Shown: positions 2,150-62,822 of the stretch, piece by piece
Layout of the letters: the number at the start of each line of letters is the position of its first letter
How positions within the stretch are numbered: the first letter of the stretch is position 1
Assembly (NCBI GenBank): GCA_934667275.1
Contig: CAKULK010000005.1
Location: forward strand, 73,167 to 137,166
Source of the DNA: an uncultured Bacteroidales bacterium
Lineage (GTDB): Bacteria > Bacteroidota > Bacteroidia > Bacteroidales > Paludibacteraceae
Reading direction: 5' to 3'
Length of the DNA: 64,000 nt
The notes under the pieces: model-generated
Databases searched by the model: none
Told to the model about the DNA's origin: nothing
Seen by the model: only the letters and a program-made list of their open reading frames with translations
Position numbers and translations under genes: made by a program

Positions 2150-2166
2150 TTATTACATACTGATAT

Positions 2167-6131: not shown

Positions 6132-6152
6132 TTATCTGCATACATACACACA

Positions 6153-6175: not shown

Positions 6176-6202
6176 TTCTTGTATATATAAGTCCTTGCAA
6201 AA

Positions 6203-6481: not shown

Positions 6482-6482
6482 A

Positions 6483-6743: not shown

Positions 6744-6797
6744 TTCTCCTTTCTTGCGGCAAAGTTACTTATTTTCTGTGACATACACAAATATTAC

Positions 6798-7892: not shown

Positions 7893-8342
7893 TAGATTTT
7901 TATACTCTATGTTATTGCGAAAACTATTATACGGTACGGACAGCCCTACAGAACGGCAACAAGAAGAGTGAGATTTGAAACGCGCTTTGTGTTAGGAAAG
8001 CCCCAACAAAACACAAAAAAGCAGATGTTCTCTCATCTCTTGTCGCGTGGCTGTAGGAATTGCCAAAAATAAGAAAGACAAGTGCAACATCTGCGAATGC
8101 AGACGCTCACAACTTATCCGATCTTATTTTGCCTTTTAGAACTTCCTACATTCCGCGACAAATACCGAATAAATAGCAAACGCTATTAATTAAGGAGTGA
8201 TATGTACTGCAAACCTATGGCACACTCCTCGCTATAAAGTTTGTTTTGGTTGCAAAGATAGTGAAAATCTATGAAGTCTCCAAATTTATTTTTATCATAA
8301 TTATGGAAAAGTATAGTTTGCCTCGGGGTTCCCTGCTGTCCC

Positions 8343-33189: not shown

Positions 33190-33690
33190 ATGAAGATTAT
33201 CGGTTTCTGCAAAATAGGTAACCAAGTACAGATGGTCTTGAAGGGCGACTCGTCATTGTTGGTGAATCGCAAGCCTTTTTTCATACCCGATTGGAGTGAA
33301 AACATTCTGATGACCCCGTGCGAAGTATTGCGCATAAGCCGATTGGGAAAAAATATAAGTCCCCGATTTGCCACTCGTTATTTTGATGCCATAGCCCCCG
33401 GGCTGAATATGCAGGCTGCAGATTACGTGAGCATGGGCAATTGGGTAAAAGGTTGGGCTTTTGATTATTCATTGGTTGTCGGCACTTTTGCAGACACAAA
33501 TCAAGATATATGGCAAAACGTTGATGCACAACCGGTTGTCAGTCATGAGGAAGCCATATATATTGCCAGCAACGTGATGACCATCCGTCAAGGCGACCTT
33601 ATCTTCATAGACCGCGATGTAACACCACGCCCGCTAAAGCGAGATGAAGTGATTACTGAGGGAGATGAATTATATTGCAAAATCAAATGA
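33190..33690 (+). CDS. Small FAH-fold-like protein (degenerate fumarylacetoacetate-hydrolase-family motifs), first gene of porU operon
   Basis: 'NRKPFFIPDWSENIL', 'DYSLVVGTFAD' and 'MTIRQGDLIF' loosely match the FAH-family blocks (pffK..., DYE.ELavvIG, mTL.PGDvI). Overlaps porU by 16 bp. Confidence 0.4.
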   Translation: MKIIGFCKIGNQVQMVLKGDSSLLVNRKPFFIPDWSENILMTPCEVLRISRLGKNISPRFATRYFDAIAPGLNMQAADYVSMGNWVKGWAFDYSLVVGTFADTNQDIWQNVDAQPVVSHEEAIYIASNVMTIRQGDLIFIDRDVTPRPLKRDEVITEGDELYCKIK

Positions 33691-36600
33691 AACGACTGAC
33701 TATCATATTGTTGGCATTATCACTTGCACTCGGTTCATGGGCAGGGATTCATTCTTATGCCGACCATTCTGCATTGCGAGAGGGACGAATAATCAAGATT
33801 CGCATTAGTGAAACGGGCATTTATTGCCTCCCCTATGACACACTCAAAGCATGGGGACTTAAGCCCGAACAAGTACGCGTACTGGGATACGGCGGAGTGA
33901 TGTTGAGCGAGAATTTCAAAGAACACCATTGGGACGACCTTCCTACCGTGAGTATTTATATGCACAAAGGGGCTGATGGTGTGTTTGGAAGTGGTGACTA
34001 CATCCTCTTTTACGCGCAAGGCGTAGTTGGTTGGAACTACGGGAATGGTCGTTGGAAGCACACCAATAATCCCTACAGCCGATATGGCTATTATTTTGTC
34101 AGCGATACCGCTGGAGAACAAAAATTAGTTTCCACTACCAACGCATTGAGTGAAGAGAATGTACAAAATGTAGAATGGTTCACCGACTATCGTGTATATG
34201 AAAAGGACAGCATCAACCTCATTGACCGCAGTGGCGTAAGCGGTGGCGGACGTGAATTCTATGACCGCCCATTACAAGGTCCTACACAGAGTTTGAACAT
34301 CTCCTTTGATACCCATAACGTCTTGACCGACAGGCCAATGTCTTGTTTGATAGACCTGGCGGCAAGTGCCACACAGGCGTCCACTTTCCGTGCCACTTTG
34401 TGCGGAACAACCAACACGGTATCGGTGAAAAACATCAGCGTCAGCGATTTCTACACCAAAGCGGAATGTGACTCTATCCTGCTAACCACAACAGCACAAT
34501 CATCTGGCAGCCAATCTGTTAACATACAGTTCAGCAACGCGGCTTCTGGAGCAGTCGGTTTCCTCAACTATATCGAACTCAACGCTCCTTGCGCCTTGAC
34601 AATGTACGGAAACACAATGGCAATCAGCAACACTGAATTCTTCGGACAATCCGTGAATACACGATTTCTGTTATCCAATGCTACAACATCTACACAAATA
34701 TGGAAAGTCACTGATGGCGTAAATATAGAGCAGATGCCCACACAGGTCGTTGATGGCAAATTGGCGTGGATTGGCAGCAACGCACGTGCTGAAAAGTATG
34801 TGGCGGTGAACGTCAACGCCTCAAATTGGAAGCAACCGCAACGTGTAGGAGTTGTTGCCAACCAAGACCTGCATGCGCTACAAAACATTGATTATGTGAT
34901 AATTTGCCCCGAAGAGTTTGTGCCTCAAGCCACGCGTTTGGCACAGAAACACGAAGAAATTGACAACCTCACATGGGCAGTAGTCACCGACCAACAGGTG
35001 TACAACGAATTCTCGTCCGGTACCCCAGATGTCACCGCCTACCGTTGGCTGATGAAGATGCTCTACGACCGCGCTAACGGCAATAAAATCCAAGAACCCA
35101 AGAGCCTGCTATTGATGGGAAAAGCCTCTTTTGACAACCGGAATTTGCTCACCACGTCAGGTACCGGTCGCCTTTTGGTGTACCAGGCACACAACTCCAC
35201 TATCGAAACCAAAGCCTATGGTTGCGATGACTATTGCGGTTTCCTCGCCGACAATGCAGGTATAGAAAGCAACGGGCGTTTCAATGATGTACGGGCACAG
35301 ATGAATATCGGAGTAGGGCGCCTGCCTGTCACCACTGCCACACAAGCCACTGAGGTGGTGGAAAAATTGTGCACCTACATGGACAATCAGGTATTGGGAA
35401 AATGGAAGACACAAATCTGCTTTCTGGCAGATGATGGCGACCATGGTTTGCATGTGCGCACAGCGGATAATGGTGCCGAGAAAATGCGTAAGAAAAACTT
35501 GGACTTTATAGTAAATAAGATATACTTGGACGCTTACACACAAGAGGTTAGCGCAGCGGGAGAAAGTTATCCGTTGGCTAAAAACCAGTTCGACAATCTC
35601 ATGAGCAACGGTGTGCTGTTCATGGACTATTCGGGACATGGTGGCTACAACAATATCACCAACGAAATGTTCATGTCTGCCAAAGACATACAACAGATGA
35701 ACAACACTAACCAAGGTTTTTGGTTCTTGGCGACCTGCAGTTTCTCGCATTTCGACAGCGGTATCACCTCCGCCGGCGAGTGGGCAGTGCTCAATCCCAA
35801 CGGTGGTGCTATTGGGGTATTGTCAGCATGTCGCACCGTATATGCTTCTCAGAATGAAGTGTTTAACCGCAATCTATGCGACACGCTCTTCGGACATAAA
35901 GACCCGTTTTCTTACAATATGACTTTGGGTGAAGCCACACGTATTGCCAAAAACACTACAGGACGTGATGAAAACAAAATGCCTTATATCTTGCTTGGAG
36001 ATCCCGCCTTGCGACTGAACTATCCCACTCAGTATCAGGTTCGTACCATTGGCCAACCGGACACGCTACATGCCTTGACGGTGCAAACCATTCGCGGTTA
36101 TATAGAGACGCCCGACCACGATACTGCCACATGGTTCAATGGCACATTAGACATCACCGTTTTCGATAAGATGCAACAAATCACCACTCGGGACAACGAT
36201 GAAACCGACGAAAACAAGAAACAGAAAATCATCTACAACGACTATCCGAACACGCTTTTCGCAGGGCAAACCAACATCATAGACGGCAAGTTTGAGTTCA
36301 CATTCATGGTTCCAAAGGATATTCGCTACAACTACGGAAACGGGCGCATTGTCTATTATGCCTACGACAACGAAGCGCGTGCAGAAGGTGTCGGACACTA
36401 TGAAGATTTCATCATTGGCGGCAGTAGTTCCATTACGATACCGGATACCATGGGTCCGGATATCCGTTTGTATCTCAACAACATAGCCTTCGCCAATGGA
36501 GGGGACACGCACGAGTTCCCGCATTTCTATGCCGACATCTACGACGACCACGGCATCAACACTGTCGGTACCGGCATCGGGCACGACCTCCTGCTCATCA

Positions 36601-37085
36601 TTGACGAAAATGCCAAGCATACCTATGTACTCAACGACTATTTCACCGCCCAAAACAATAGTTATCAGCAAGGGCGTGTCAGTTACAAGATGCCCGAAAT
36701 GGACGAGGGAACCCATAGTCTGACATTCCGTGCGTGGGATTTGCTCAACAATAGCAGCACCGCCACACTTAATTTTCATGTGGTCAAAGGCATGGATCCG
36801 CAGATTTTCCAAGTGCTCACCTACCCCAACCCTGTTTCGGCATCGGAAATCATGAACATCCGCATTGAGTATGATCGCCCCGATGAAATCATACAAACAT
36901 CTGTTTATCTGTATGATATAAGCGGTCATCTACTGTCGGTTACCGAGCAAAAAGGTGCCGATAATCTCCAATGGAATATCAGCGAATTGGGTATGCACGC
37001 AGGCGTGTATATATATCAGGTCAAAATCAAGACACAGACCTCCAACTATGTCTCCAAAGCAGGAAAAATAATCGTTTCACAATAA
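33675..37085 (+). CDS. porU: Type IX secretion system sortase PorU (C25-family cysteine peptidase, retains own CTD)
   Basis: 1136 aa with signal peptide. Gingipain-like catalytic dyad context 'YSGHGGY' (His) and 'WFLATCSFSHFDSG' (Cys). C-terminal T9SS sorting domain 'LTYPNPVSASEIMNIRIEY...GVYIYQVKIK'. Followed by porV. Confidence 0.8.
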   Translation: MQNQMKRLTIILLALSLALGSWAGIHSYADHSALREGRIIKIRISETGIYCLPYDTLKAWGLKPEQVRVLGYGGVMLSENFKEHHWDDLPTVSIYMHKGADGVFGSGDYILFYAQGVVGWNYGNGRWKHTNNPYSRYGYYFVSDTAGEQKLVSTTNALSEENVQNVEWFTDYRVYEKDSINLIDRSGVSGGGREFYDRPLQGPTQSLNISFDTHNVLTDRPMSCLIDLAASATQASTFRATLCGTTNTVSVKNISVSDFYTKAECDSILLTTTAQSSGSQSVNIQFSNAASGAVGFLNYIELNAPCALTMYGNTMAISNTEFFGQSVNTRFLLSNATTSTQIWKVTDGVNIEQMPTQVVDGKLAWIGSNARAEKYVAVNVNASNWKQPQRVGVVANQDLHALQNIDYVIICPEEFVPQATRLAQKHEEIDNLTWAVVTDQQVYNEFSSGTPDVTAYRWLMKMLYDRANGNKIQEPKSLLLMGKASFDNRNLLTTSGTGRLLVYQAHNSTIETKAYGCDDYCGFLADNAGIESNGRFNDVRAQMNIGVGRLPVTTATQATEVVEKLCTYMDNQVLGKWKTQICFLADDGDHGLHVRTADNGAEKMRKKNLDFIVNKIYLDAYTQEVSAAGESYPLAKNQFDNLMSNGVLFMDYSGHGGYNNITNEMFMSAKDIQQMNNTNQGFWFLATCSFSHFDSGITSAGEWAVLNPNGGAIGVLSACRTVYASQNEVFNRNLCDTLFGHKDPFSYNMTLGEATRIAKNTTGRDENKMPYILLGDPALRLNYPTQYQVRTIGQPDTLHALTVQTIRGYIETPDHDTATWFNGTLDITVFDKMQQITTRDNDETDENKKQKIIYNDYPNTLFAGQTNIIDGKFEFTFMVPKDIRYNYGNGRIVYYAYDNEARAEGVGHYEDFIIGGSSSITIPDTMGPDIRLYLNNIAFANGGDTHEFPHFYADIYDDHGINTVGTGIGHDLLLIIDENAKHTYVLNDYFTAQNNSYQQGRVSYKMPEMDEGTHSLTFRAWDLLNNSSTATLNFHVVKGMDPQIFQVLTYPNPVSASEIMNIRIEYDRPDEIIQTSVYLYDISGHLLSVTEQKGADNLQWNISELGMHAGVYIYQVKIKTQTSNYVSKAGKIIVSQ

Positions 37086-37172
37086 ATCAATTACTTCTAA
37101 AGAGCCTATGAAGCATCTCTAAAAGTTCAACCGACAAATCGAAAAATTAACTACATAAATATCTAAAACAAA

Positions 37173-38372
37173 ATGAAAAAAGTCTTTTTATCCATCATGG
37201 CAATAGCCGGTCTCAGCCTGCCGTTGTTGGCCACCAATCCGGTCATCACAGCCATGCCTTCTCTCAGTGTTGCCCCGGATGCTCACGCCGCAGGTTTGGG
37301 TGATGTCGGCGCAGCCACAACTCCTGATTTGAACTCCCAACACTGGAACCCCGCCAAATATGCTTTCATGGAGAGCCGAGGAGGTATCACCGCCAACTAC
37401 ACTCCTTGGTTGCGCAAGTTGGTGAGTGACATTGATTTGGCATATCTTGCAGGTTACTACAAAATCAACGATATGCAGGCTATCTCAGCCAGTTTCAGTT
37501 ATTTCTCCATGGGTGCCGTCCAATTGGTTGACTATAGCGGCACGGCTTTCCAGGAAGCGCATCCAAATGAATGGTCTCTTGATGCTGCCTACTCCATCAA
37601 ACTGCACGAGTATGTCAGTATGGCGGTAGCACTCCGTTTCCTCTATAGCGACCTCAACAATGGTACCAACGCCTCTGTCACTACGGGTTCCACGGAATTG
37701 CGCCCGGCATGGACAATGGCGGCCGACATTGCGCTCTACTACAAGCAGCCTATCGCACTCCCGATGGGCGATAGTTATTTCGGACTCGGTTTCAACCTCA
37801 GCAACCTCGGCGGCAAGATGTCCTATGACAACGGCGATACCAAGAACTTCATCCCTGCCAATATGCGCTTGGGTATCAGTTACGAGTTGCCTTTCGACAA
37901 CTATAATCGCCTTATGGCTACCGTTGAGGCTAACAAAATGCTCGTGCCTACCTACTATTCCAAATTTGCCGAAGACACCGACAACCATCGTATGACGCAA
38001 ACCGAATACTCCAACACAACCTCTCCTGATGGCTGGTGGAAGTCGTTCTGCGATGCTCCGGGCTACACCACCGATGAAGGCAAAGTTGTCAGCCCTGCAT
38101 TGGAGGAGTTGCAGGAGATTCAATGGGGCGTAGGTCTTGAATATAGTTACAATCGCCAGTTCTTCGGGCGCGTTGGCTATAGCCACGAAAACTACTACAA
38201 AGGCAACCGCCGCTATGTGACCATCGGTGCTGGTTTCAAACTCAGTATCTTCTCTTTGGATGTTGCCTACTGCATTGCCACGGCAGCCTCCAACCCGCTC
38301 GACCAGACCATGCGTTTTACGCTCGGTTTCGACCTCGCAGGTATCAAAGACCTCGTCAACAACAAGAAATAA
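37173..38372 (+). CDS. porV: Type IX secretion system outer-membrane shuttle protein PorV (LptO)
   Basis: 399-aa signal-peptide beta-barrel protein immediately downstream of porU, matching the conserved porU-porV pairing. FadL-like N-terminal 'AMPSLSVAPDAHAAGLGDVGAATTPD'. Confidence 0.8.
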   Translation: MKKVFLSIMAIAGLSLPLLATNPVITAMPSLSVAPDAHAAGLGDVGAATTPDLNSQHWNPAKYAFMESRGGITANYTPWLRKLVSDIDLAYLAGYYKINDMQAISASFSYFSMGAVQLVDYSGTAFQEAHPNEWSLDAAYSIKLHEYVSMAVALRFLYSDLNNGTNASVTTGSTELRPAWTMAADIALYYKQPIALPMGDSYFGLGFNLSNLGGKMSYDNGDTKNFIPANMRLGISYELPFDNYNRLMATVEANKMLVPTYYSKFAEDTDNHRMTQTEYSNTTSPDGWWKSFCDAPGYTTDEGKVVSPALEELQEIQWGVGLEYSYNRQFFGRVGYSHENYYKGNRRYVTIGAGFKLSIFSLDVAYCIATAASNPLDQTMRFTLGFDLAGIKDLVNNKK

Positions 38373-43748: not shown

Positions 43749-46172
43749 ATGCACACTCTTCTTCTCGCCATCTCCACTCTGCTCACCTCGTGGCAGTTCG
43801 CCTTCGAGCAGACCGACCATCAGATGCCCGCACCCGCCGACAAGGCTTGGCAGCAGGTCACCATCCCCCACGACTGGGCGATATACGGACCATTCGACCG
43901 CCAGAACGACCTGCAGAACGTCACCGTCTGGCAGAACGGCGAGACCTTCCCCTCGCTCAAAACGGGGCGCACGGGCGGTCTCCCCTACATGGGCACCGCG
44001 TGGTACACCACGCACATCGCCCCGCTCACCGCGCCTTCCGACACCGCCACGCAGCGTTACACCCTGCTCTTCGACGGTGCCATGAATGAAGCCGAGGTCT
44101 ATGTCAACGGGCAGAAAGCCGGCTATTGGCCCTACGGCTACAACGCCTTCCACTGCGACATCACGCCCTACCTCCACACCGACGCGCCCAACCTCATCGC
44201 TGTCCGCCTCTGCAACCGCGAGCAGAGCAGCCGCTGGTACCCAGGCGCAGGGCTCTACCGCAACGTGCACCTCATCACCTCGCCGCGCACCCACGTACCC
44301 GTATGGGGCACCCACATCACCACCCCCTACGTCACCGACCGGTTGGCATCCGTCAACCTCCGCACCCGCGTGGACAACGCCCTCGGCAGGCATATCACCC
44401 TCCGCACCACCCTCATCTGCAAAGCCACGGGCGAGGCTGTTGACTCCCTCACCAGCGACTACGACATCCGCCACAACCTCCCGCTCGAGCAGAACTTCAC
44501 CCTCCCCACCCCGCTCCTCTGGTCGCCCGAGACGCCCCACCTCTACGAGGCGCGCACCTCGCTCTACGCCGATAGCGAATGGCAGGAGGATATCATCACC
44601 ACCTTTGGCATTCGCAACGTGCAAATCGTCCCCAACGTGGGTTTCATGCTCAATGGCAAGGTGCGTAAGTTCCAAGGTGTCTGCCTGCACCACGACCTTG
44701 GTCCCCTCGGTGCCGCCGTCAGCCACGATGCCATCCGACGCCAACTGCTTCTGCTGCGCGACATGGGCTGCGACGCCATCCGCACCTCCCATAACATGCC
44801 CGCGCCCGAACTCATCGAACTGTGCGACTCCATGGGCTTCATGGTCATGTGCGAACCCTTCGACGAATGGGACTGGGGCAAGTGCGACAACGGCTACAGC
44901 CGTTTCTTCAACGAATGGGCGGAGCGCGACATGGTGAATATGCTCCACCATTTCCGCAACAACCCGAGCATCGTGATGTGGTCGGTCGGCAACGAAGTCC
45001 CCACCCAATGCGACCCGCAGGGCTATCGCGTGGCGAAGATGCTGCAGGACATCTGCATGCGCGAAGACGGCACGCGCCCTGTCACCGCAGGCATGGACCA
45101 AGTCTCCTGCGTGCTTGAAAACGGCTTCGCGAGCATCCTTCAGGTGGTCGGACTCAACTACCGCCCGCACTGCTATGAGGAGGCGTACCGGCGCACCCCG
45201 CAGCGTCTCGTCCTCGGCAGCGAGACGGCGTCCACCGTCTCCTCGCGCGGCGTCTATCTGCTCCCCGCCCTGCCCGACAACACCGAGACCATCACCAACA
45301 TCGACCACCCGGGCGGCAACAGCCGCACCAACCAGAGTTCTTCCTACGACCTCCAATACTGCCCGTGGAGCAACCTGCCCGATGACGATTTCCGCAACAT
45401 GGACGACTATCCTTGGACCATCGGTCAGTTTGTCTGGACGGGCTTCGACTACCTCGGCGAGCCCTCACCCTACGACACCGATGCTTGGCCCAGCCACTCC
45501 TCCTACTTCGGCATCATCGACCTCGCGGGCATTCCCAAGGACCGCTACTACCTCTACCGCGCCCGGTGGAACACGCGCGACCACACCACCCACCTGCTCC
45601 CCCACTGGAACTGGCACGCGGGCGACACCGTACCCGTTATGGCGTACACCGATGCCGACGAGGGCGAACTCTTCCTCAACGGCATCAGTCTCGGCAAGCG
45701 CACCAAACTCACCCGCGAGCAGGCTCAGGCGGCTGCCGCCAAAGGCGACCCGCTGGCTCTGCAACGCCGCTACCGCCTTATCTGGGACAGCATACCTTGG
45801 CAATCGGGCGAACTGCGTATCGTAACACCCTACGGCGAGGATGTCCGCCGCACCGCCGGCAAACCTCACCACATCGAGATGTACCTCGAGCCGCTCACCA
45901 ACGCCGCTGACAACACCTTACATTTCGTACGCGTGCGCGTGTGCGACGCCGATGGCAACCTCTGCCCCGATGCCGACCAACTCATCCGCTTCGCCACCCG
46001 CGGCACAGGTCGCTTCCGCGCCGCTGCCAACGGCGATGCAGCCAACCTCGACCTCTTCCACCTCCCGCAACACCACGCCTTCTCGGGTGAACTCACTGCC
46101 ATCATCGAAGGCAGTTGCACCCTCACGGCTACCGCCAAAGGATTAAAATCTGCTAAACTCATCATCAACTGA
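43749..46172 (+). CDS. GH2 beta-galactosidase
   Basis: 807 aa. 'WQQVTIPHDWAI' sugar-binding N-terminus, 'NHPSIVMWSVGNE' (acid/base Glu) and 'CEPFDEWDW'. Partners the GH53 galactanase. Confidence 0.85.
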   Translation: MHTLLLAISTLLTSWQFAFEQTDHQMPAPADKAWQQVTIPHDWAIYGPFDRQNDLQNVTVWQNGETFPSLKTGRTGGLPYMGTAWYTTHIAPLTAPSDTATQRYTLLFDGAMNEAEVYVNGQKAGYWPYGYNAFHCDITPYLHTDAPNLIAVRLCNREQSSRWYPGAGLYRNVHLITSPRTHVPVWGTHITTPYVTDRLASVNLRTRVDNALGRHITLRTTLICKATGEAVDSLTSDYDIRHNLPLEQNFTLPTPLLWSPETPHLYEARTSLYADSEWQEDIITTFGIRNVQIVPNVGFMLNGKVRKFQGVCLHHDLGPLGAAVSHDAIRRQLLLLRDMGCDAIRTSHNMPAPELIELCDSMGFMVMCEPFDEWDWGKCDNGYSRFFNEWAERDMVNMLHHFRNNPSIVMWSVGNEVPTQCDPQGYRVAKMLQDICMREDGTRPVTAGMDQVSCVLENGFASILQVVGLNYRPHCYEEAYRRTPQRLVLGSETASTVSSRGVYLLPALPDNTETITNIDHPGGNSRTNQSSSYDLQYCPWSNLPDDDFRNMDDYPWTIGQFVWTGFDYLGEPSPYDTDAWPSHSSYFGIIDLAGIPKDRYYLYRARWNTRDHTTHLLPHWNWHAGDTVPVMAYTDADEGELFLNGISLGKRTKLTREQAQAAAAKGDPLALQRRYRLIWDSIPWQSGELRIVTPYGEDVRRTAGKPHHIEMYLEPLTNAADNTLHFVRVRVCDADGNLCPDADQLIRFATRGTGRFRAAANGDAANLDLFHLPQHHAFSGELTAIIEGSCTLTATAKGLKSAKLIIN

Positions 46173-54293: not shown

Positions 54294-57200
54294 ATGAAAA
54301 AACATTTTTCTCTTTTCATTCTCTTATTCTGTTGCCTGCCATTCTTTGCACAAAGCAGCAACAACGAAGACGAAGTGGTCAAAATCGACCGCATCAACTA
54401 TGGTGCCTACCGTGATGGCGAAGTAATCGTCAAGTTCAAAGACGATTGTTCTGCCGTCATGCGTGCCCCGCGCCGTGCGCGTTTCTCGTCGGCACAGGCA
54501 ACTGCTGTGGACCAACTCTTTGCCACCCTTGGCGTGGATTCCGTAGAGGAACTGATGCCACGGACAGGCGCGCGTCCTATGCCCCGCCGTATCAAAGCCT
54601 ACAGCGGCAAGGACGTAGAGCCCAAGAACCTCCACAAACTCTATCGTATCACCTTGAGCGAACAGGCACGCCAGCAGCGCAGCATCCATGAGGTAGTCAG
54701 CCAACTCCAAGCCCTTGATGAGGTGGAGTATGCCGAGCCAAACTACCTTGTCTATGCCATGTCCACCACAGATAGAGGCGATGCCGTCACGTATATGTCC
54801 GAACCTCTCTATAGCCAGCAATGGGGATATGCTGCCATCAATCTCCCCTATCTGTGGAACCTGCCCAAGGTGCGCACCAAACGCCCTGTGATTGCCATAT
54901 TGGACACGGGCGTGGATATAGAGCACCCCGACCTCGCAGCCAATATCTGGACGAATGAGAAAGAGGCAACCGGTGTTGAGGGGCAAGACGATGATAGAAA
55001 TGGTTTCAAAGACGATATCCACGGTTGGGACTTTGTCAACCAGCGCAGCAAAATTGCCGACTACAACGGACATGGCACCCACTGCGCAGGTATTGCTGCC
55101 GCCGTAGGCGATAACGGTATCGGTATCACGGGTGCCAACCCCGACGCACTCATTATGCCGGTAGTCGTTATGCAGGCAGATGGTACAGGCGATGTTGCTA
55201 CAATCATCAAGGGTATTGATTATGCTGCTGCCAATGGTGCTGATGTCATCTCTATGTCCTTTGGCGGCTATGGTTACTCGCTTGCTGAGGAGCAAGCACT
55301 GGGACGTGCGTATGCAACGGCAGTCTTGGTCGCTGCTGCGGGAAATGACTATAAGTGTATTATGCCGCACGACTGCCCCGTCAATCACAAGAGCGCAATG
55401 GAAAATGGTCCGATGTTCCCTGCTGCATTTACTTTTGTCTTAGGCGTGGAGGCTTCTTCTCAATTAGGCTTGGCAAGTTTCAGCAATTTCGATGAAGATG
55501 GTCCTATATATTCCACTTTCGGTGAAGAAAAACTCTACAACTACGAACTGCGTGCACCGGGTGTCGGTATTGTGAGCACGTTTCCGGGTGGGCGATACAA
55601 GAAACTGAATGGTACATCTATGGCATGCCCGATGGTGGCAGGTGCTGTCAGTCGCCTGCTGCAAGTCAAGACAGACTCTGCTTTGGTGAGCAAAGAAGTG
55701 CTCTTTGGCGACCTTATCCATAGCCGATCGGGCTGGTTCGGCAACATCAATATGAAGACGGTGTACAACTACTCGGATGCGAACCGCAAACCGACATTGT
55801 ATCTCATAGGTCAAGAAATGCAAGACACCATTGTAGGTGATGGGGATAGCGAATATGATGTAGGGGAGACCATCGAATTTTACCCTATCCTGCGCAACGA
55901 TTGGGGAACGGCAAAGAATATCCGCTTTTGGATGTGCACGGGGCAATATACGGATGGTGTATGGGTAATGGGCGACACCGCACAAATTCACTATCTGACC
56001 GATACGGTTTCTTTTGGCAAGCCGCTGAGTAGTTACGCTAAAAACAAATCACTCAACCCGATACGCTTCTCTATCAACTCCAATTGTGCAGATGGGGTAC
56101 ATATCCCGCTCACATTCTATGCTGTATGTGATAATATGACTGACACACTCCGCCGGACATTTACCATCACTGTCAATAATGGCGTGGAAATTGGTGGTAT
56201 GCTAACAGAAGATATGACGTTATATCCGCAAGTACATTATGTTGTCACCAAAAGATTAGCAATTCCTAAAAATGTGACATTAACGCTTTCCCCAGGAACC
56301 ACTCTGAAATTTAAAGATAACACTGGACTGACAATAGAGGGACATCTAATTGCCCAAGGCACCCCTGATAGTACAATAACATTTACAAAAGCGGATAATG
56401 CTTTGGGTACAATATCAGAATTTTCTCTTTATGGTGATGGTGACACCCTCAAGTATTGTATATTCGAAAGATTATCTGCCCAAGGGTATCTCCTAATGAT
56501 GTATCGTCACAAATACTACCTTGAAAATTGTTGCATTAGAAATAATGCTACTGATTTCATTATTACTGATAATACTAATTCTGGAACATGTGTAGTAAAA
56601 ACAAATCTATACAACAACCTCACGCACCGAACACTTTGTGTCCCCACAGTACACTGTTCCAATATTGTCAATAACCACGCTACATCTAAATCATATTGTT
56701 CAGGTCTCGTTGCAGATAAACTAAATATCCAAGTTACAAACAATAATGTATTTTCAAATACTGCACCAGATGGGCAGATACAAAATTTTCACTCTAACGA
56801 TAACGCTTCCATCATTTGGGATGCCCCTCAATATTGGGGAAGTAATAATGAGACCATAATTCGAGAAGGTATTTGGGATATTAATCACCCAATAGGGACA
56901 TTTGATTGTTCCTGGCATTACGACATAACAAAGCGCTTGCACCGCCCAAGTTCAGAAGCCCATGGTATTGTTTGGAAAGTGGTCGTTGACGGCTACGATG
57001 CACAAGATGAGTTTGAGCAGTTGCCACCAATTGGCGTAGGCACACATACCTGTCAAGTATATTTCAATCGTGCGATGGATACCCTTATCACGCCTTTAGT
57101 GTCCTACGGTGTTCGCCCACCCTACACGCAGCACGCTATCACGGGAGGCTCTTGGTCTGCCGATTCCACTATTTACACAGCCAACTTTACCATTGATGCC

Positions 57201-58271
57201 AAAACAGCCTCCGATGGTCTCAACCGTTTCTATGTCGCCGACGCACAAGATAACGAACATTTCGAAGTTCCGATAGAGAATGTTCGTTTCAATATGCAGA
57301 TAGAGGCGGCAGGCTCTATGTCAACAGGTCTCATGGCAGAGGCAGGCTTGGGAAAGGTCACCCTCAGTTGGGAAACTGACGAGGAAGACTTTGCCGACCT
57401 CTTGGGCTACAATATCTATCGTTGGACAGGTGATACTATATGGACCAACTCGCAGCATACACAGTTCCGTATAGACACCATTCAAGTTAATGAATCGCTG
57501 ATAGATTCCGAAGAGCAGAATTTTGTGGACTACAACGTTACCCCGGGCAAACCCTACTACTACATCATCAAGCAAATCACTACCTCACTCAACCAATACA
57601 ACCTCTCCAATCCCGTTGTGGCAACTCCGCTGACTTCTATCAAGGGAGATGCCAACGGCTCTATGTCTGTGGATGTGGCGGATGTGATTACCGAGGTGAA
57701 CTACATCGCTCGTCAGAACCCGCAACCGTTTATCTTCGAGGCAGCCGATGTCAATTCGGATAATACGATTGATATTCTTGATGTGGTGGGGACGATTAAC
57801 CTCATTCTGCATCCTGAGAACAAGTCGCAAGCTGTAAATAGCGGTTCGGCTACGTATTATATAGAGAATGGCATTCTCTATGTGGATGCCGATGTGGCGT
57901 TGGGCGGTGTACAATTTACGTTGGCTACCGATTCGGCGACAGCCACTATCACCCCGTTGGATGCCCTCTCGCAGTTTGAGAAAGTGTCGCAATGGAACAA
58001 TTCCGAGGAGTACTTCTTTATGGCATATTCTATGTCGGGCAAGACCATCGGTGTCGGCGAAACTGCCCTTATGCAAGTGGGCAATGCGGATATTTCGTCT
58101 ATCGTGCTTTCCGACACACAGGGGCATAATGTGAAGGCTGCGCCGCGTATCTCTACCCGCCTTGATGGAACCACCTTTATGCCGAACACCGAAAAGTATA
58201 TCCAAGACGGCAGTCTCTACATCCGTATGGGCGAACATATCTACAACGCTCTCGGGCAACAAGTACGATGA
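54294..58271 (+). CDS. Secreted S8 subtilase-family serine peptidase carrying FN3-like module and a C-terminal-region type-I-like dockerin; no T9SS CTD
   Basis: Signal peptide. Catalytic triad blocks 'AILDTGVD' (Asp), 'HGTHCAGIAAAVG' (His) and 'GTSMACPMVAGAV' (Ser). FN3-like 'GKVTLSWETDEEDFADLLGYNIYRW'. Dockerin duplicated Ca-binding repeats 'DANGSMSVDVADVITEVNYIA' and 'DVNSDNTIDILDVVGTINLIL' at nt 57648-57809. Confidence 0.85.
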   Translation: MKKHFSLFILLFCCLPFFAQSSNNEDEVVKIDRINYGAYRDGEVIVKFKDDCSAVMRAPRRARFSSAQATAVDQLFATLGVDSVEELMPRTGARPMPRRIKAYSGKDVEPKNLHKLYRITLSEQARQQRSIHEVVSQLQALDEVEYAEPNYLVYAMSTTDRGDAVTYMSEPLYSQQWGYAAINLPYLWNLPKVRTKRPVIAILDTGVDIEHPDLAANIWTNEKEATGVEGQDDDRNGFKDDIHGWDFVNQRSKIADYNGHGTHCAGIAAAVGDNGIGITGANPDALIMPVVVMQADGTGDVATIIKGIDYAAANGADVISMSFGGYGYSLAEEQALGRAYATAVLVAAAGNDYKCIMPHDCPVNHKSAMENGPMFPAAFTFVLGVEASSQLGLASFSNFDEDGPIYSTFGEEKLYNYELRAPGVGIVSTFPGGRYKKLNGTSMACPMVAGAVSRLLQVKTDSALVSKEVLFGDLIHSRSGWFGNINMKTVYNYSDANRKPTLYLIGQEMQDTIVGDGDSEYDVGETIEFYPILRNDWGTAKNIRFWMCTGQYTDGVWVMGDTAQIHYLTDTVSFGKPLSSYAKNKSLNPIRFSINSNCADGVHIPLTFYAVCDNMTDTLRRTFTITVNNGVEIGGMLTEDMTLYPQVHYVVTKRLAIPKNVTLTLSPGTTLKFKDNTGLTIEGHLIAQGTPDSTITFTKADNALGTISEFSLYGDGDTLKYCIFERLSAQGYLLMMYRHKYYLENCCIRNNATDFIITDNTNSGTCVVKTNLYNNLTHRTLCVPTVHCSNIVNNHATSKSYCSGLVADKLNIQVTNNNVFSNTAPDGQIQNFHSNDNASIIWDAPQYWGSNNETIIREGIWDINHPIGTFDCSWHYDITKRLHRPSSEAHGIVWKVVVDGYDAQDEFEQLPPIGVGTHTCQVYFNRAMDTLITPLVSYGVRPPYTQHAITGGSWSADSTIYTANFTIDAKTASDGLNRFYVADAQDNEHFEVPIENVRFNMQIEAAGSMSTGLMAEAGLGKVTLSWETDEEDFADLLGYNIYRWTGDTIWTNSQHTQFRIDTIQVNESLIDSEEQNFVDYNVTPGKPYYYIIKQITTSLNQYNLSNPVVATPLTSIKGDANGSMSVDVADVITEVNYIARQNPQPFIFEAADVNSDNTIDILDVVGTINLILHPENKSQAVNSGSATYYIENGILYVDADVALGGVQFTLATDSATATITPLDALSQFEKVSQWNNSEEYFFMAYSMSGKTIGVGETALMQVGNADISSIVLSDTQGHNVKAAPRISTRLDGTTFMPNTEKYIQDGSLYIRMGEHIYNALGQQVR
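57648..57809 (+). other. Dockerin module (two 21-22-aa EF-hand-like repeats with 12-aa linker) inside the S8 protease
   Basis: The D-x-N-x-D/S-x-x-I/V-D-x-x-D-x-x-x-x-x-N-x-I pattern is repeated twice. Read directly from the translation. Confidence 0.7.
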
Positions 58272-60421
58272 TGAAACGTTGTATTTTGTTCTTTTTGACT
58301 ATTGCTTCGCTGACTGTGTCGGCAGGCAATAGTCTTTCACTGCCCGCATTGTCAGGCAAGCCTGGCGATACACTCTCTGTATCGGTGCAATTCGAGTGTA
58401 CCGATGCCGTTACGGCTATGGAGATAGCCTTGCCCCTCAGCCCGTATATTCAGTATGTCGGCACCTCTGCCATGCTCAATGCAGCCCGTGCCAACGGACA
58501 CACGCTCTACGCCCAATCGGTACGCGACACCCTCTTTGTGCAGATATATAGTCTTTCGCTCTCGGCATTGCAAGGGCAATCAGGCGAATTGTTTTCTTTC
58601 CGCCTTGCGTTGCGCAACGAGCCCCAAGTGCTGGCATTGCTGCCGCGTGTCTTGGCGGTTAATGCACAAGGGCAACGCTTGCCTGTATCGGTAGTACCTG
58701 GTCAAATCACCACTTTGGCACCCAAAATCGCTATTCTGACACCGACGATTGACTATGGGCATCACCCCATTCGTCAGACTTATACACAAACCCTGTCGGT
58801 ACGCAATATCGGCACCTCGCCACTGACGATATACTCGCTCTCTTTGCCCGCCGACCTGTTTGCCTACGACGGCAAGGCACATACTATTGCCGCAGGTGCT
58901 ACTGCTGACATCCCCATTCGTTATGCACCCGTTCTGCGAGGTGCATACAGCGGAACTGTTAAGATACACTCCGATGCCACCAATGCAGCCTTGCGTGTGA
59001 ACTCCGAAGTGGCTGTCATCGCAGACCCGTTCTCGGTGAACGAACTGCACATCGGTTCGGCTTCGGGTATTGCGGATAGTTTGGTTACCATTCCGCTCAC
59101 AATGAATAATATGGAACCTATTGTGGCCATGCAATGTGCTTTCCGTTTGCCGCAGGAGTTGCTTTTTGAAGCGGGCAGTTTCAGTGTTAATGCCAATCGA
59201 ACCAACGGACATACAGCCTTATCTTCGGTACATGGCGACACGCTCTCGCTCTATATCTATTCGCCAACCAATCAGCCTTTACTGGCAAACGATGGTGAGG
59301 TGGCGTCTTTCCGTCTCCGCCTCAATGGCAACTCGGGCACCTACTACCTCACGCCCATAGATGTCATTCTCAGCAATGCCACTTCCGAGAACATGGTATC
59401 TGCCACCTCACGGGGTTCCGTGCGTATTCAGAGCCCGCGTTTGTCTTGTGGTAATAGTATCACTTTTGCCGATGCTGCCATTACAGATGTTGTGCACGCT
59501 ACTTTCTCCCTGCGTAATAACGGCGATGCACCGCTTGTCATAGAGCGTGCCACTTTCTTGGCAGAAGGTTTTTCCATCGTGGAACCATTACCTGTATCTG
59601 TTGCGGCAAGACAGAGTACTTCTCTTACCATTGCCTATCAGCCCAAGGCTGAAGGGGACTTCTCCACCATGATGAATCTCTATACCAACGACCCTACGGC
59701 ACGCCTGAAGTCCATTGCTCTTTCGGGGCATATCTATGAGCCGAACAGCCTTTCCGTAGAGGGGCAGAGTAGGCAGGGAGACGATGCTTACACGCTGTCG
59801 GTGTCGCTCTCCAACTATACCGACATTGTGGCGGCGCAGTTTGATGTACACTGGATAGGCACTATGGCTACGTCGCAAGCGCAATGTACTCCCTCTCCAC
59901 GTTTGCAACAACACAACTATTCGGTCAGTCGTATAGGAGATTCCGACTACCGTGTATTGATGTACTCTATGGCGAATACACCCATCAGCGGACACGATGG
60001 TGAACTGCTCCGGCTCCTCTTCACCCCGCAAGAGAGCGGCACTGCAGACTATTGTGGCACCACTCTCACTATCGACAATATCGTCCTCAGCAATGCCCGT
60101 GGCGAAAACAAGCAGTCCCTATCCCCTATCACCTACCGCATTGAGCAACCTTGTATTCCTACTGCTCTCAATACTCACGTGGTCAATCCGTACACTTTGT
60201 ACCCAAACCCTGCGACAGATATGGTATATCTTTGTGGGAATGATATTGCCTCTTTCCGTGTCTTTTCTTCGGCAGGCAGTCTTGTGTACGACACCCGACT
60301 TACAGGGAGCCAAACCGAACACGCGATAGATGTCCACAAATTGGCGGCAGGAGTGTATATGGTTGTAGTGTACGATACCCATCACACCGCACACACCACC
60401 ACCTTTATCAAGTCCGAATAA
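58268..60421 (+). CDS. T9SS-cargo scaffoldin-like protein: three cohesin-like modules alternating with Ig-like (DUF1573-type) domains, plus type-A T9SS C-terminal sorting domain
   Basis: Signal peptide. Three modules with cohesin signature blocks: 'GDTLSVSVQFE...AMEIALPLSPYIQYVG...GELFSFRLALRN', 'ADSLVTIPLTMNN...AMQCAFRLPQELLFEAG...GEVASFRLRLNG' and 'AYTLSVSLSNY...AAQFDVHW...GELLRLLFTPQ'. C-terminal domain 'LYPNPATDMVYL...GVYMVVVYD...FIKSE'. ATGA start/stop overlap with the protease gene. Confidence 0.7.
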   Translation: MMKRCILFFLTIASLTVSAGNSLSLPALSGKPGDTLSVSVQFECTDAVTAMEIALPLSPYIQYVGTSAMLNAARANGHTLYAQSVRDTLFVQIYSLSLSALQGQSGELFSFRLALRNEPQVLALLPRVLAVNAQGQRLPVSVVPGQITTLAPKIAILTPTIDYGHHPIRQTYTQTLSVRNIGTSPLTIYSLSLPADLFAYDGKAHTIAAGATADIPIRYAPVLRGAYSGTVKIHSDATNAALRVNSEVAVIADPFSVNELHIGSASGIADSLVTIPLTMNNMEPIVAMQCAFRLPQELLFEAGSFSVNANRTNGHTALSSVHGDTLSLYIYSPTNQPLLANDGEVASFRLRLNGNSGTYYLTPIDVILSNATSENMVSATSRGSVRIQSPRLSCGNSITFADAAITDVVHATFSLRNNGDAPLVIERATFLAEGFSIVEPLPVSVAARQSTSLTIAYQPKAEGDFSTMMNLYTNDPTARLKSIALSGHIYEPNSLSVEGQSRQGDDAYTLSVSLSNYTDIVAAQFDVHWIGTMATSQAQCTPSPRLQQHNYSVSRIGDSDYRVLMYSMANTPISGHDGELLRLLFTPQESGTADYCGTTLTIDNIVLSNARGENKQSLSPITYRIEQPCIPTALNTHVVNPYTLYPNPATDMVYLCGNDIASFRVFSSAGSLVYDTRLTGSQTEHAIDVHKLAAGVYMVVVYDTHHTAHTTTFIKSE

Positions 60422-60496: not shown

Positions 60497-60706
60497 ATGA
60501 AGGAAATCTTGATAACAATAGGTCTGGTGGCACTTGCGGTGGTGCTTTTGTGCGTGCGCATACTGCTCCGTAAGGGCGGGAAGTTCAGCAGCCAGCATAT
60601 CTCCGAGAACAAGAAGATGCGCGAAAATGGCATTCATTGTGCCACCTCGCAGGACCGCGAGGCACGTCGTGACGCACGCAAAAAGATGAACGTAAATGAG
60701 TTGTAG
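60497..60706 (+). CDS. Small single-pass membrane protein (69 aa)
   Basis: 'ILITIGLVALAVVLLCVRILL' TM helix followed by a basic tail. Has a dedicated promoter-like box. 11-bp overlap with the next gene's ORF. Confidence 0.45.
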   Translation: MKEILITIGLVALAVVLLCVRILLRKGGKFSSQHISENKKMRENGIHCATSQDREARRDARKKMNVNEL

Positions 60707-60728
60707 CACCTCCCCTACCCCGGCACCA

Positions 60729-62822
60729 ATGCCCATACATATTTGCCGCTATATTGTCCGCCAAAGCACACCACACGGATGGTGCAATCGGCTGTTTTTC
60801 ATTGTATTGTGTATGGCTTTCGGCTGTCTGATGCAGTCGTGCAGTCTGTCAGCCCGTCTCAAGAAAGCGGACAAGAAATACGCCATCGGCGAGTACTACG
60901 AGGCAGGGGATATGTACAAGAACCTCTACGCCAAGGTGCCACAAAAGCAGAAGCCCTTGCGCGGCGAAGTGGCATTCAAGCAGGGGGAGTGTATGCGCAT
61001 ACTCAACAACCCACGTGCCGCTGCCGCCTACAAGAACGCCATCAAGAACCACTATCCCGACTCCGTCGTCTATCTCCACTACGCCCAAGTGCTGCAGTAC
61101 CAGGGCAAGTACCGCGAGGCGGCGCAGCAGTACGAGATATACCTCCAAGCCCACCCCGACGACTATGTGGCACAGGCGGGACGCTATGCCTGCGCCCAAG
61201 TGGAGACATGGCGCAAGCAACCCACGCGCTACAAGGTGGCACCCGCGAAAGAGTTTAACCAGAAGCGGACATCCAACTTCGCACCCTCTTTTATCACGGA
61301 AGACGGTGATGCACTCGTCTTCACGTCCAACCGCCAGCAGCAGAAGACCAACAAAAAGAAGACCCGCAACTCGCCCGTAACGGGTATGGCGACCTACAAC
61401 CTCTACTCCGCGCGCAAGAACGCAGCGGGACAGTGGGAGGACATCGCCCTCTGCGAGGGGTTGTACGAGGAAGACGCTTCCGCAGAAGGCGAAGGTGAGG
61501 AAGGCGGCACGCAGAAAAAGACAGGCTCTGCCGAACTCGGCGTATGTTGTTTCTCGCCCGACGGCAAGACGATGTACTTCACCTACTCATGTCCCGTCAA
61601 CGGGCAGGACTTAGGTGCCAAAATCTACACCTCCACACGTGCCAGCGGTGAGTGGGGCGAGGCGCAGGAACTCAAGTTGTTCAGCGACAGCAGTACCACA
61701 GTCGGGCACCCCGCTCTCAATGCCACGGGTGACACACTCTATTTCGTCAGCGATGCCCCGGGCGGCTTTGGCGGCAAAGACATCTACATGGCAGTGCAGG
61801 ACGGCGGCGGGTGGACCGATATTCAGAACCTCGGACCACAAATCAACACCGCAGACGATGAGTTGTTTCCTTATGTGCGTGCTGACGGACGGCTCTATTT
61901 CTCCTCCAAGGGGCACCCCGGATACGGCGGACTTGACCTTTTCTATGCCGAGCGCACCGACACCGCATGGATGATTTTCAATATGGGCACGCCCTTCAAC
62001 AGCCAATACGATGACTTCGGCATCGCCTTTGCAGGGGCTACCGAAAACGGCTTTTTCTCGTCCAACCGCGGGCAGAAGAAGGGCTACGATCTTATCTATT
62101 CGTTCACGCTGCCCGAGATGGTGTTCACCGTAGAGGGCAAAGTGACGGACACGCAGGGCGAACACCTGTCGGAGGCTACCATACGTCTGGTGGGCGACGA
62201 CGGCACCAATGTCAAGACGCAGATACGCCGCGACGGTACCTACCGCCTGCGCCTACAGAAGGATACCCGCTATGTCATGCTCGCCACCGCACGCGGCTAT
62301 CTCAACGAGAAGCAGCAACTCACCACGGCGGGGCTGACCGACAGCCGTACTTATGAGCAGGACTTCACGCTGGCACCCGTTTCCAAGCCCGTGAAGATGG
62401 ACAATATCTTCTTCGAGTTCGGCAAATGGGACCTGACACCCGACTCCGAAGGCGGGCTGAACGGACTTATCCGACTGCTGAACGACAACCCGAATATCAC
62501 CATCGAACTCGCGGCGCACACCGATATGGTGGGCAACGACAAGGACAACAAAGTGCTGTCCGAGAAACGTGCACAGTCTGTAGTCAACTACCTGATACAG
62601 CATGGCATCGAGTCGGAACGCCTGACTCCTGTGGGCTATGGCGAGGAGAAGCCCGTTGTGGTGGACGAGGTATTGCACAAGCAGTACCCGTATCTGCCTG
62701 TTGACCAGACATTGGACGAGGCATTCATCACTACCCTGCCCGCCGACCAACAGCAGGTCTGCAACTCCCTCAACCGCCGCACCGAGTTCCGCGTGCTGAA
62801 AACAACGTATAAATTGTATTAG
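60729..62822 (+). CDS. OmpA-family lipoprotein with TPR and TolB-like (PD40) beta-propeller repeats
   Basis: Lipobox 'MAFGCLMQSCS'. TPR-like N-terminus. PD40-type repeats ('DGKTMYFT', 'GDTLYFVSD', 'DGRLYFSS'). C-terminal OmpA domain 'NIFFEFGKWDL...ITIELAAHTDMVGNDKDNKVLSEKRAQSVVNYL'. Start placed at 'MPIHICRY'. Confidence 0.7.
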   Translation: MPIHICRYIVRQSTPHGWCNRLFFIVLCMAFGCLMQSCSLSARLKKADKKYAIGEYYEAGDMYKNLYAKVPQKQKPLRGEVAFKQGECMRILNNPRAAAAYKNAIKNHYPDSVVYLHYAQVLQYQGKYREAAQQYEIYLQAHPDDYVAQAGRYACAQVETWRKQPTRYKVAPAKEFNQKRTSNFAPSFITEDGDALVFTSNRQQQKTNKKKTRNSPVTGMATYNLYSARKNAAGQWEDIALCEGLYEEDASAEGEGEEGGTQKKTGSAELGVCCFSPDGKTMYFTYSCPVNGQDLGAKIYTSTRASGEWGEAQELKLFSDSSTTVGHPALNATGDTLYFVSDAPGGFGGKDIYMAVQDGGGWTDIQNLGPQINTADDELFPYVRADGRLYFSSKGHPGYGGLDLFYAERTDTAWMIFNMGTPFNSQYDDFGIAFAGATENGFFSSNRGQKKGYDLIYSFTLPEMVFTVEGKVTDTQGEHLSEATIRLVGDDGTNVKTQIRRDGTYRLRLQKDTRYVMLATARGYLNEKQQLTTAGLTDSRTYEQDFTLAPVSKPVKMDNIFFEFGKWDLTPDSEGGLNGLIRLLNDNPNITIELAAHTDMVGNDKDNKVLSEKRAQSVVNYLIQHGIESERLTPVGYGEEKPVVVDEVLHKQYPYLPVDQTLDEAFITTLPADQQQVCNSLNRRTEFRVLKTTYKLY

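Follow-up and report, generated by a model that had tools for sequence, protein, structure and literature searches.

Why should a gut bacterium of the order Bacteroidales encode a secreted protease with a dockerin and, directly behind it, a protein with three cohesins? This question is raised by a 64-kb window (the whole stretch of 64,000 nt that was analysed, from contig CAKULK010000005.1 of an uncultured Paludibacteraceae bacterium), in which two open reading frames (ORFs) have 4 nt in common: the ATGA at 58268-58271 contains both the gene 1 stop and the gene 2 start (…CAA GTA CGA TGA TGA AAC…). The original prediction, made from the letters alone, had read these as coupled genes for an S8 subtilase with a duplicated-repeat dockerin and for a 717-aa protein with three cohesins and a type-A C-terminal sorting domain (CTD) of a type IX secretion system (T9SS). 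ORF calls and hidden Markov model (HMM) searches bore out the overlapping ORFs and the S8, dockerin, cohesin and type-A CTD assignments. The pair is a real, widespread and uncharacterised conserved two-gene module of gut Bacteroidales, and we lean towards the view, drawn from sequence, that its products form a surface complex in which the protease dockerin is held by the T9SS-anchored tri-cohesin partner. The features of the pair are listed here.

54294..58271 (+): gene 1, secreted multidomain S8 subtilase of 1325 aa (ORF call, Pfam and NCBIfam matches, same position in orthologous loci)
54294..54350 (+): Sec signal peptide MKKHFSLFILLFCCLPFFA, read by eye from the translation; Gln would then begin the mature protein
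54417..54830 (+): N-terminal prodomain of the Peptidase_S8_N / Fervidolysin N-pro type (PF22148, 27 bits against a cut-off of 21)
54879..55679 (+): peptidase S8 catalytic domain (PF00082, aa 196-462, 153.4 bits, E 1e-44)
56274..56750 (+): weak right-handed beta-helix region (PF13229, 16.1 bits, below cut-off)
57381..57629 (+): FN3-like module 5′ of the dockerin, recognised by eye from the pattern …LSWETDEEDF…GYNIYRW…PGKPYYYI…, without an HMM match
57642..57821 (+): dockerin with F-hand repeats GDANGSMSVDVAD… and ADVNSDNTIDILD… (Pfam Dockerin_1)
57831..58163 (+): module X, a compact cohesin-fold module (Foldseek and hhalign)
58179..58268 (+): tail-b, a ~30-aa C-terminal tag MPNTEKYIQDGSLYIRMGEHIYNALGQQVR, conserved in L010, L014 and L012 and standing where orthologues have a type-A CTD
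58268..60421 (+): gene 2, tri-cohesin partner protein of 717 aa (ORF call, Pfam and NCBIfam)
58325..58705 (+): cohesin module 1
58706..59002 (+): immunoglobulin (Ig)-like spacer 1 (choice-of-anchor D / HYDIN / ASH / PapD-like)
59003..59434 (+): cohesin module 2, the best conserved module, with the invariant motif or strand NNMEPIVAMQCAF
59435..59737 (+): Ig-like spacer 2 (DUF1573 / ASH; PF07610 54.8 bits, PF15780 49.5 bits)
59738..60151 (+): cohesin module 3, the best Pfam Cohesin stretch (aa 495-613), aligned by hhalign to modules 1, 2 and X
60197..60418 (+): T9SS type-A CTD (LYPNPATD…GVYMVVVYD…FIKSE)

A conserved pair of dockerin protease and tri-cohesin protein

Partner homologues number at least 592. 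When one genome per species was scanned, 46 loci were found across Bacteroidales metagenome-assembled genomes (MAGs) of Paludibacteraceae, Ca. Aphodosoma, Prevotella-like 'Bacteroidaceae', Muribaculaceae, Paraprevotella and Ca. Minthenecus, and an S8-dockerin protease lay immediately upstream on the same strand in every locus that had upstream DNA (44/44). The 46 loci include that of a cultured isolate, Hallella faecis CLA-AA-H145, which makes experiments feasible. Loci gathered from individual homologues always had an S8 protease of 1313-1401 aa directly upstream, and their flanking genes differed. For the reciprocal test, the protease C-terminus served as query on metagenome contigs and loci with at least 600 nt downstream were counted; the partner followed within 2.5 kb in 68/73. 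The next gene in three of the five exceptions was a second S8 paralogue in tandem (tandem second S8 genes with a prodomain stand at L111:4942-6807, L120:2106-4040 and L122:4740-8579), and such tandem proteases would fit several enzymes on one multi-cohesin partner. That the pair might be absent or unlinked in relatives, a possibility raised with the original prediction, is contradicted by both counts. An identical partner protein occurs on at least 23 human-gut metagenome contigs, Hadza samples included, with a 1325-aa protease 5′ of it wherever those contigs extend far enough; given this recurrence, the gene pair is not an assembly artefact. A scan for sigma-70 promoters and terminators stayed at the level of shuffled sequence, the sigma-70 model being unsuited to Bacteroidota.

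The protease runs from its signal peptide through prodomain, S8 domain, beta-helix/Ig region, FN3-like module, dockerin and module X to a C-terminal tag. Its catalytic residues are D204 (DTG), H260 (HGTH) and S442 (GTSMA), with N351 at the oxyanion position, and the triad motifs were intact in all 43 full-length orthologues. The HMM match and the Asp-His-Ser order place the enzyme in peptidase family S8; against NCBIfam PrtP the domain reached 45.3 bits, far under the 300-bit cut-off, and the prodomain scored 22.7 bits with PF16361, under that model's own cut-off. The middle of the protein, around the beta-helix region, was its least conserved part (mean identity 0.29; conservation figures throughout were computed over 35 complete protease/partner pairs), and in the L009 orthologue PF13229 gave 23.4 bits, just under its cut-off of 25.9 bits.

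The dockerin matched Dockerin_1 (PF00404) at aa 1117-1166 with 23.6 bits over the whole protein (cut-off 22.9) and with 26.8 bits when only the C-terminal 214 aa were scanned; orthologues scored 17.5-24.5 bits. Both 22-residue repeats have D/N/S at Ca-loop positions 1, 3, 5, 9 and 12 (D-A-N-G-S-M-S-V-D-V-A-D in repeat 1, D-V-N-S-D-N-T-I-D-I-L-D in repeat 2), and in an AlphaFold2 (AF2) model a helix directly follows each loop (model residues 29-39 and 62-73). The marginal HMM score and the two F-hand repeats with their helices identify a type I dockerin, and phmmer against the PDB returned weak dockerin matches (5lxv_B, 2y3n_B and 3ul4_B). The inter-repeat linker, NPQPFIFEAA, is invariant and unusual among dockerins. 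The dockerin was the best conserved segment of the protease (mean pairwise identity 0.74, 53% of columns at least 90% conserved) and outranked the catalytic domain (0.70 and 49%), which fits a conserved binding partner or interface.

The partner consists of a signal peptide, three cohesins alternating with two Ig domains, and a type-A CTD. Over the whole protein, Cohesin PF00963 scored 31.5 bits against a cut-off of 24.1. When the window modules were scanned in isolation, Pfam cohesin gave no match for modules 1 and 3 and only 15.3 bits for module 2; the modules were therefore assessed by their orthologues and by profile-profile comparison, the latter built on a 74-sequence alignment. For every module there was some orthologue in which it exceeded the Pfam cohesin cut-off: module 1 in L032, L038, L050 and L058 (37.8-50.1 bits), module 2 in P0120 (27.2 bits) and module 3 in P0012 (27.3 bits as a whole-protein total). 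In agreement, hhalign related module 1 to module 2 with 99.5% probability, module 1 to module 3 with 96.8% and module 2 to module 3 with 94.6%, while the controls, in which modules were set against Ig domains or the CTD, all remained below 3% and Ig1 aligned to Ig2 with 96%. Together with a nine-stranded beta jelly-roll fold, on which solved cohesins can be superposed, these scores identify the modules as cohesins; plain Ig or BACON-like domains, an alternative named beforehand, are at odds with their mutual homology and orthologue scores.

The Ig domains of the partner (PapD/ASH-like, HYDIN-like, DUF1573) scored 79.8 bits with NCBIfam choice_anchor_D. Its sorting domain, with 34.6 bits for TIGR04183 (cut-off 23) and 38.9 bits for PF18962 (cut-off 27), marks it as type-A T9SS cargo. 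No carbohydrate-binding module (CBM) was matched in the partner by Pfam or NCBIfam. The AF2 model resembled beads on a string, with a predicted local distance difference test score (pLDDT) of 86 and a predicted template modelling score (pTM) of 0.45. Module 2 was the most conserved of the partner modules (0.56), and its conservation together with that of the dockerin would be the pattern expected of a conserved interface.

Directly 3′ of the dockerin lies a ~110-aa module that had escaped the original prediction, module X. With the region after the dockerin as Foldseek query against the PDB, the best 24 matches were all cohesins (6kgc_A, E 4.5e-5), among them C. acetobutylicum CaCohA2, non-cellulosomal C. 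perfringens cohesins and an A. fulgidus cohesin, and hhalign aligned module X to partner module 3 with 95.5% probability (E 1.5e-8). The AF2 model of aa 1100-1325, i.e. dockerin, module X and tail (Doc-X-tail; pLDDT 85, pTM 0.73), shows a sandwich of eight strands and a tail of three besides the helices of the dockerin. Because a pTM of 0.73 is high for independent domains, the model suggests that the dockerin packs against module X. The Doc-X tandem is kept in every orthologue, with a mean identity for module X of 0.51, below that of the dockerin. A homologue search with the 226-aa Doc-X-tail query, like one with the tail profile, yielded nothing but short gene fragments about as long as the query.

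Exchangeable C-termini

As the original prediction held, the window protease has no T9SS C-terminal domain: Por_Secre_tail gave no match with Pfam or NCBIfam. This absence turned out to be peculiar to its clade, since 48/52 orthologous proteases end in a type-A CTD by family-specific HMMs; the distant orthologues have a complete one (…YPNPF…LPAGVYFVTLYVDDK…KLV), with Pfam scores of 25.5-28.2 bits in L006 and L008. The pair therefore cannot serve in general to tether a tail-less enzyme. The window protease ends instead in tail-b, and the ending …PNTEKYIQDGSLYIRMGEHIYNALGQQVR was seen only in proteases of the window clade (window, L010, L014 and the split L012 gene) and of L031. This tail is conserved in protein sequence across lineages whose partners are only 71-89% identical. 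Most Paludibacteraceae partner proteins, which have no CTD, end in a like tail (…QKILRNGQLLILRDGKTYDVMGQEL). The protease and partner sets align gap-free with K, I and G invariant (consensus K-x-[ILV]-x-x-G-Q-[LI]-x-I-[ILV]-R-D-G-K-x-Y-x-x-M-G-Q-E-[LV]), and a T-x-[VI]-[DE]-[ND]-[IV] motif often stands 5′ of the tail. Instances were noted at 58179-58268 of the window, at the C-termini of P0019-P0120 and in P0214-P0404.

The tail-b profile was searched against 1.84 billion cluster representatives and hit 13,539 clusters at E <= 1e-3 and 837 at E <= 1e-10. Of the best 150 matches, essentially all ran to the last or second-last residue. All ten full-length tail-b proteins that were sampled were of the BspA-type leucine-rich repeat (LRR) kind, some with Flg_new_2 or FN3, and none of the ten had Por_Secre_tail. 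No Pfam or NCBIfam model covered tail-b when the window tail and the sampled proteins were scanned. Although it has no recognisable T9SS domain, the window protease thus appears not to be signal-less, given this widespread C-terminal tag. Tail-b may be the protease's own localisation signal, and may represent an undescribed sorting or anchoring signal.

Simpler origins of tail-b and of the missing CTD were tried and rejected. Tail-b is not a truncated CTD (hhalign below 1% against CTD profiles). It does not complete the cohesin fold of module X either, as module X alone aligns by hhalign to nearly the whole of module 3, nor does it belong to that fold, as partner homologues and LRR proteins also have it behind unrelated domains, separated from them by a linker. 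Loss of the CTD by frameshift or assembly error is contradicted by the junction of the two genes, where no CTD remnant was found in any frame, and by the recurrence of the 1313-1325-aa form in many independent assemblies and relatives.

In L012, whose partner is 71% identical, the protease is split into ORFs of 1022 and 248 aa (171-3239 and 3417-4163). The C-terminal piece keeps dockerin, module X and tail-b, and a frameshift, a pseudogene or an error of assembly could account for the split.

The C-termini of the partners varied as well. Among the genome loci they ended in a type-A CTD, tail-b, a third ending termed tail-c, CTD-like sequences that could not be placed (13 C-termini were left unplaced by the CTD classification) or a dockerin. 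Tail-c (…GIYDLQGRKL…GIYIVNGKKVVK; pattern G-[IV]-Y-D-L-x-G-R-K-[VL]…L-x-x-G-[IV]-Y-I-[IV]-N-G-K-K-V-V-K) was present in the partners of L040, L041, L043, L045, L049 and L051 and in the protease fragments P0151-P0203. It aligned to the type-A CTD with 76.6% probability in hhalign, with large internal deletions, and resembles a mini-CTD of ~30 aa in which the GxY and K-x-x-K motifs are retained. Eight genomes (L032, L033, L034, L038, L044, L046, L050 and L059) have a partner that ends in a dockerin, exemplified by GDVNGDGVVNITDAIGLVNYILGK…AADVNEDGAVNITDAIAIVNLILTQK of L033; Pfam dockerin scores were 34.7-51.2 bits in L032, L033, L038, L044 and L050. In L058, a Muribaculaceae MAG, the partner has an internal dockerin and a Big_2 domain, and a third gene directly 3′ of the pair (L058:8936-11830) encodes six Big_2 domains, HYR and Dockerin_1, a hint that the cohesin-dockerin network may be larger in some lineages.

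The combinations observed, given as protease/partner, were CTD/tail-b, CTD/CTD, CTD/dockerin, CTD/tail-c, tail-b/CTD (the window) and tail-b/tail-b (L031). As the partner ends in a CTD, a short tail or a dockerin depending on the genome, the roles of anchor and cargo are interchangeable. Judged by these endings, the layout predicted for the window, with an anchored scaffold and a tethered enzyme, is the reverse of the commonest configuration, and a CTD-anchored scaffold that holds a tail-less protease looks like one local configuration. The conserved feature looks like the complex itself, in which the anchoring ends are swapped and the dockerin and cohesins stay constant.

Two further observations concern partner architecture. 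A dockerin-ended partner resembles an adaptor scaffoldin, whose cognate cohesin could be module X of a CTD-bearing protease. Longer partner homologues (P0016-P0120, after ~aa 630) have a variable number of ~50-aa Cys-containing repeats between cohesin 3 and the C-terminal tag (…ACDSYxWNGxTYTxSGxY…GCDSxxxLxLTI…), often accompanied by a '…KYAVETDCG…' module; these insertions account for lengths of 850-1500 aa.

A proposed surface complex and its alternatives

The T9SS machinery is represented within the window by three genes, of which the original prediction had correctly placed porU and porV upstream (33675-38372, both now identified by NCBIfam) and had overlooked porE.

33675-37085 (+): porU (NCBIfam NF033707, 1028.8 bits)
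37173-38372 (+): porV (NCBIfam NF033710, 439 bits)
60696-62822 (+): porE, directly 3′ of the pair (NF052230, 747.4 bits against a cut-off of 600)

The gene porE adjoins the pair only in close relatives (L001-L005, L010 and L011); this adjacency was not found in L006, L008, L012 or L014. Its ORF start at 60696 is probably too far upstream, as the product called in some assemblies has 669 aa. Between the partner gene and porE lies a small ORF of ~69 aa (MKEILITIGLVALAVVLLCVRILL…, 60497-60706) with one predicted transmembrane helix and, 5′ of it, the Bacteroidetes-like motif TAACTTTG. The gene calls of L001-L005 and L010-L011 include it, and L009 has a 62-aa ORF at the same position.

In the surface complex that we favour, Sec would carry both proteins into the periplasm and the T9SS, for which PorU, PorV and PorE are encoded in the window, would export the partner. 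PorU would then cut off the partner CTD, leaving the partner covalently attached to the cell surface, and the protease with its tail-b would likewise cross the outer membrane. There, the protease dockerin would bind a partner cohesin in a Ca2+-dependent manner, with module 2 as our best guess. One surface scaffold could hold up to three proteases, with the rigid Ig domains acting as spacers. Indirect support for real cohesin-dockerin interactions in the family comes from the partners that end only in a dockerin, since these have no obvious means of retention besides a cohesin.

Several findings weigh against such a complex. The dockerin is barely over the Pfam cut-off in the window protease and below it in several orthologues (17.5-18.5 bits), and no other dockerin-bearing protein was found within the 64-kb window. 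Most orthologous proteases have a CTD of their own, so that anchoring does not in general depend on the complex, and L031 has tail-b on both proteins and a CTD on neither, so a CTD on one of the two is not obligatory. The dockerin could also be occupied in cis by the adjacent module X. Taken further, this last point gives an account that we consider unlikely, in which module X would bind its own dockerin and so stabilise or orient the C-terminus, and the partner cohesins would bind something else (dockerins encoded elsewhere, the C-terminal dockerins of partner orthologues or a non-dockerin ligand). The cohesin fold of module X directly 3′ of the dockerin, the retention of the tandem in every orthologue, the unusual invariant linker and the higher pTM of the Doc-X-tail model than of the partner model are all consistent with a clasp in cis. 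However, the contact is one suggested by a pTM, module X is less conserved than the dockerin that it would hold, and the near-obligate linkage to a tri-cohesin gene would go unexplained. Binding in cis and in trans would moreover be compatible, as the partner could displace the cis contact.

Another account does without docking. The partner would be displayed by its CTD and the protease by tail-b, and the two would cooperate only in function, the partner perhaps capturing substrate or serving as an adhesin. Cohesins and dockerin would then have no affinity for each other and would have a structural or Ca-binding role. Tail-b ends more than 13,000 clusters of unrelated surface proteins and stands where a CTD would; it thus has the look of a localisation tag that works autonomously, and both proteins have their own C-terminal signal in most genomes. 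The Ig domains of the partner belong to the NCBIfam choice-of-anchor D family, which is named for proteins with varied sorting signals, and Peer and colleagues are said to have noted in 2009 many non-cellulosomal cohesin- and dockerin-like modules with no demonstrated partner. We nevertheless regard such mere co-operonic display as quite unlikely, because the dockerin is better conserved than the catalytic domain, the overlapping genes are almost universally linked, and partners that end only in a dockerin would have no attachment unless a cohesin bound it. It is very unlikely, in our view, that the protease, having lost its T9SS signal in the window clade, binds the partner cohesins by its dockerin in the periplasm and passes through the T9SS translocon folded and in complex, by means of the partner CTD. 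The T9SS does export folded proteins, the overlap of the genes would favour co-synthesis, and the combination of a protease without and a partner with a CTD in the window clade has been kept across lineages with divergent partners. Against such piggy-back export, tail-b tags thousands of proteins that have no partner of this kind, pointing to a route of the protease's own; L031 has the tag on both proteins; and we know of no precedent for hitch-hiking through the T9SS. Doubtful, too, is a composite scenario in which tail-b is a widespread unrecognised localisation signal of gut Bacteroidales that can replace the CTD, a fixed cohesin-dockerin core has its ends shuffled (CTD, tail-b, tail-c or dockerin), and the protease is held only via the partner and is perhaps exported with it.

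Relation to known systems

The original prediction had taken a tri-cohesin T9SS cargo paired genetically with its dockerin enzyme for a system not yet described, which goes too far. The concept has already been published as an inference in another phylum: using MAGs of Cloacimonadota, Williams et al. 2021 (PMC8542988) inferred a tandem-cohesin scaffoldin with a CTD for surface attachment and dockerin-bearing S8 and C25 peptidases. In the passages on that complex, from Ca. Stygibacter, the concept is the same, including a dockerin-bearing S8/S53 enzyme. The phylum differs, the scaffoldin there has 3,755 aa with CBM2 and CBM3, and the enzymes are of the glycoside hydrolase (GH) families GH18 and GH57 as well as C25 and S8; those passages report no conserved gene pairing, and that complex is likewise predicted only. 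Dockerin-bearing S8 peptidases have also been listed as cellulosome components (PMC12484212). The Ruminococcus bromii amylosome (PMC4611034; cited in PMC6118326) is a gut cohesin-dockerin assembly for a non-cellulose substrate, and differs in belonging to a Firmicute, in its amylases and many dockerin proteins and in having no T9SS. The open-access full-text literature yielded no description of a Bacteroidales pair of dockerin protease and tri-cohesin protein, absence there being no proof, and papers on Bacteroidetes T9SS systems found no cohesins or dockerins in the genomes that they covered.

The assembly logic is type I cohesin-dockerin and cellulosome-like, but the pair is not a cellulosome: in the strict sense, a cellulosome has a CBM-bearing scaffoldin and a repertoire of dockerin-tagged carbohydrate-active enzymes, and here, across the window and the linked genes, a protease is the sole enzyme with a dockerin. 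The clostridial type I pairs (C. thermocellum CipA-Cel48S, C. cellulolyticum and C. acetobutylicum CaCohA2) share with it the duplicated F-hand with Ca-ligands at positions 1, 3, 5, 9 and 12 and the division into a non-catalytic multi-cohesin protein and a dockerin enzyme. Unlike them, the present pair belongs to Gram-negative Bacteroidales and has a T9SS CTD as anchor, not an S-layer homology domain or sortase signal. It has no CBM or glycoside hydrolase, its enzyme being a protease that also contains a cohesin-like module; its cohesins are spaced by PapD/ASH-like Ig domains; and it forms a two-gene operon with one enzyme per scaffold gene in place of a large dockerin repertoire.

Cohesins and dockerins also assemble non-cellulolytic secreted enzymes in Clostridium perfringens, whose toxins (GH84 NagJ/NagH and GH33 NanJ) differ from the present pair in being glycosidases of a Gram-positive bacterium that dock enzyme to enzyme without a scaffold or a T9SS. 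The Archaeoglobus fulgidus cohesin and dockerin proteins (cohesin structure 2xdh) are non-cellulosomal as well, and one of them has both a dockerin and a cohesin, as the window protease does; they are archaeal and not coupled to a secretion system. With the gingipains of P. gingivalis and dentilisin (PrtP-PrcA-PrcB) of T. denticola, the pair has in common that surface proteases of host-associated anaerobes occur in multi-protein complexes. Gingipains are likewise CTD cargo processed by PorU/PorV, but they are C25 cysteine proteases and their complexes form via adhesin domains, not cohesin-dockerin pairs. The partners of dentilisin are lipoproteins without cohesins.

Cohesin-dockerin assembly is regarded as a polysaccharide-degrading strategy of Firmicutes, and T9SS cargo is usually seen as individually anchored. 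The locus points to a proteolytic, cellulosome-style surface complex, routed through the T9SS, in Bacteroidales of human and ruminant guts. If binding occurs as proposed, several large subtilases would be clustered on one stalk, with bearing on protein foraging and on the degradation of host glycoproteins and mucus; the pair would also provide a new orthogonal cohesin-dockerin couple for protein engineering and a natural experiment in anchor swapping between the subunits of a complex. This shuffling of anchors, the presence of a cohesin within the enzyme and a C-terminal tag without annotation are the more surprising elements. The tag is a by-product in itself, as a candidate sorting signal at the end of more than 13,000 protein clusters, many of them BspA-type LRR proteins.

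Elsewhere in the window, an 836-aa ORF at 14303-16813, between a peptidase M16-like gene and mutS, had no NCBIfam match at E <= 1e-5. The GC content, ~0.50 in general, departed from this in two places: it was 0.37 at 6001-8000 and 0.63 at 44001-46000, the latter over a gene for a GalB-type beta-galactosidase (43749-46172).

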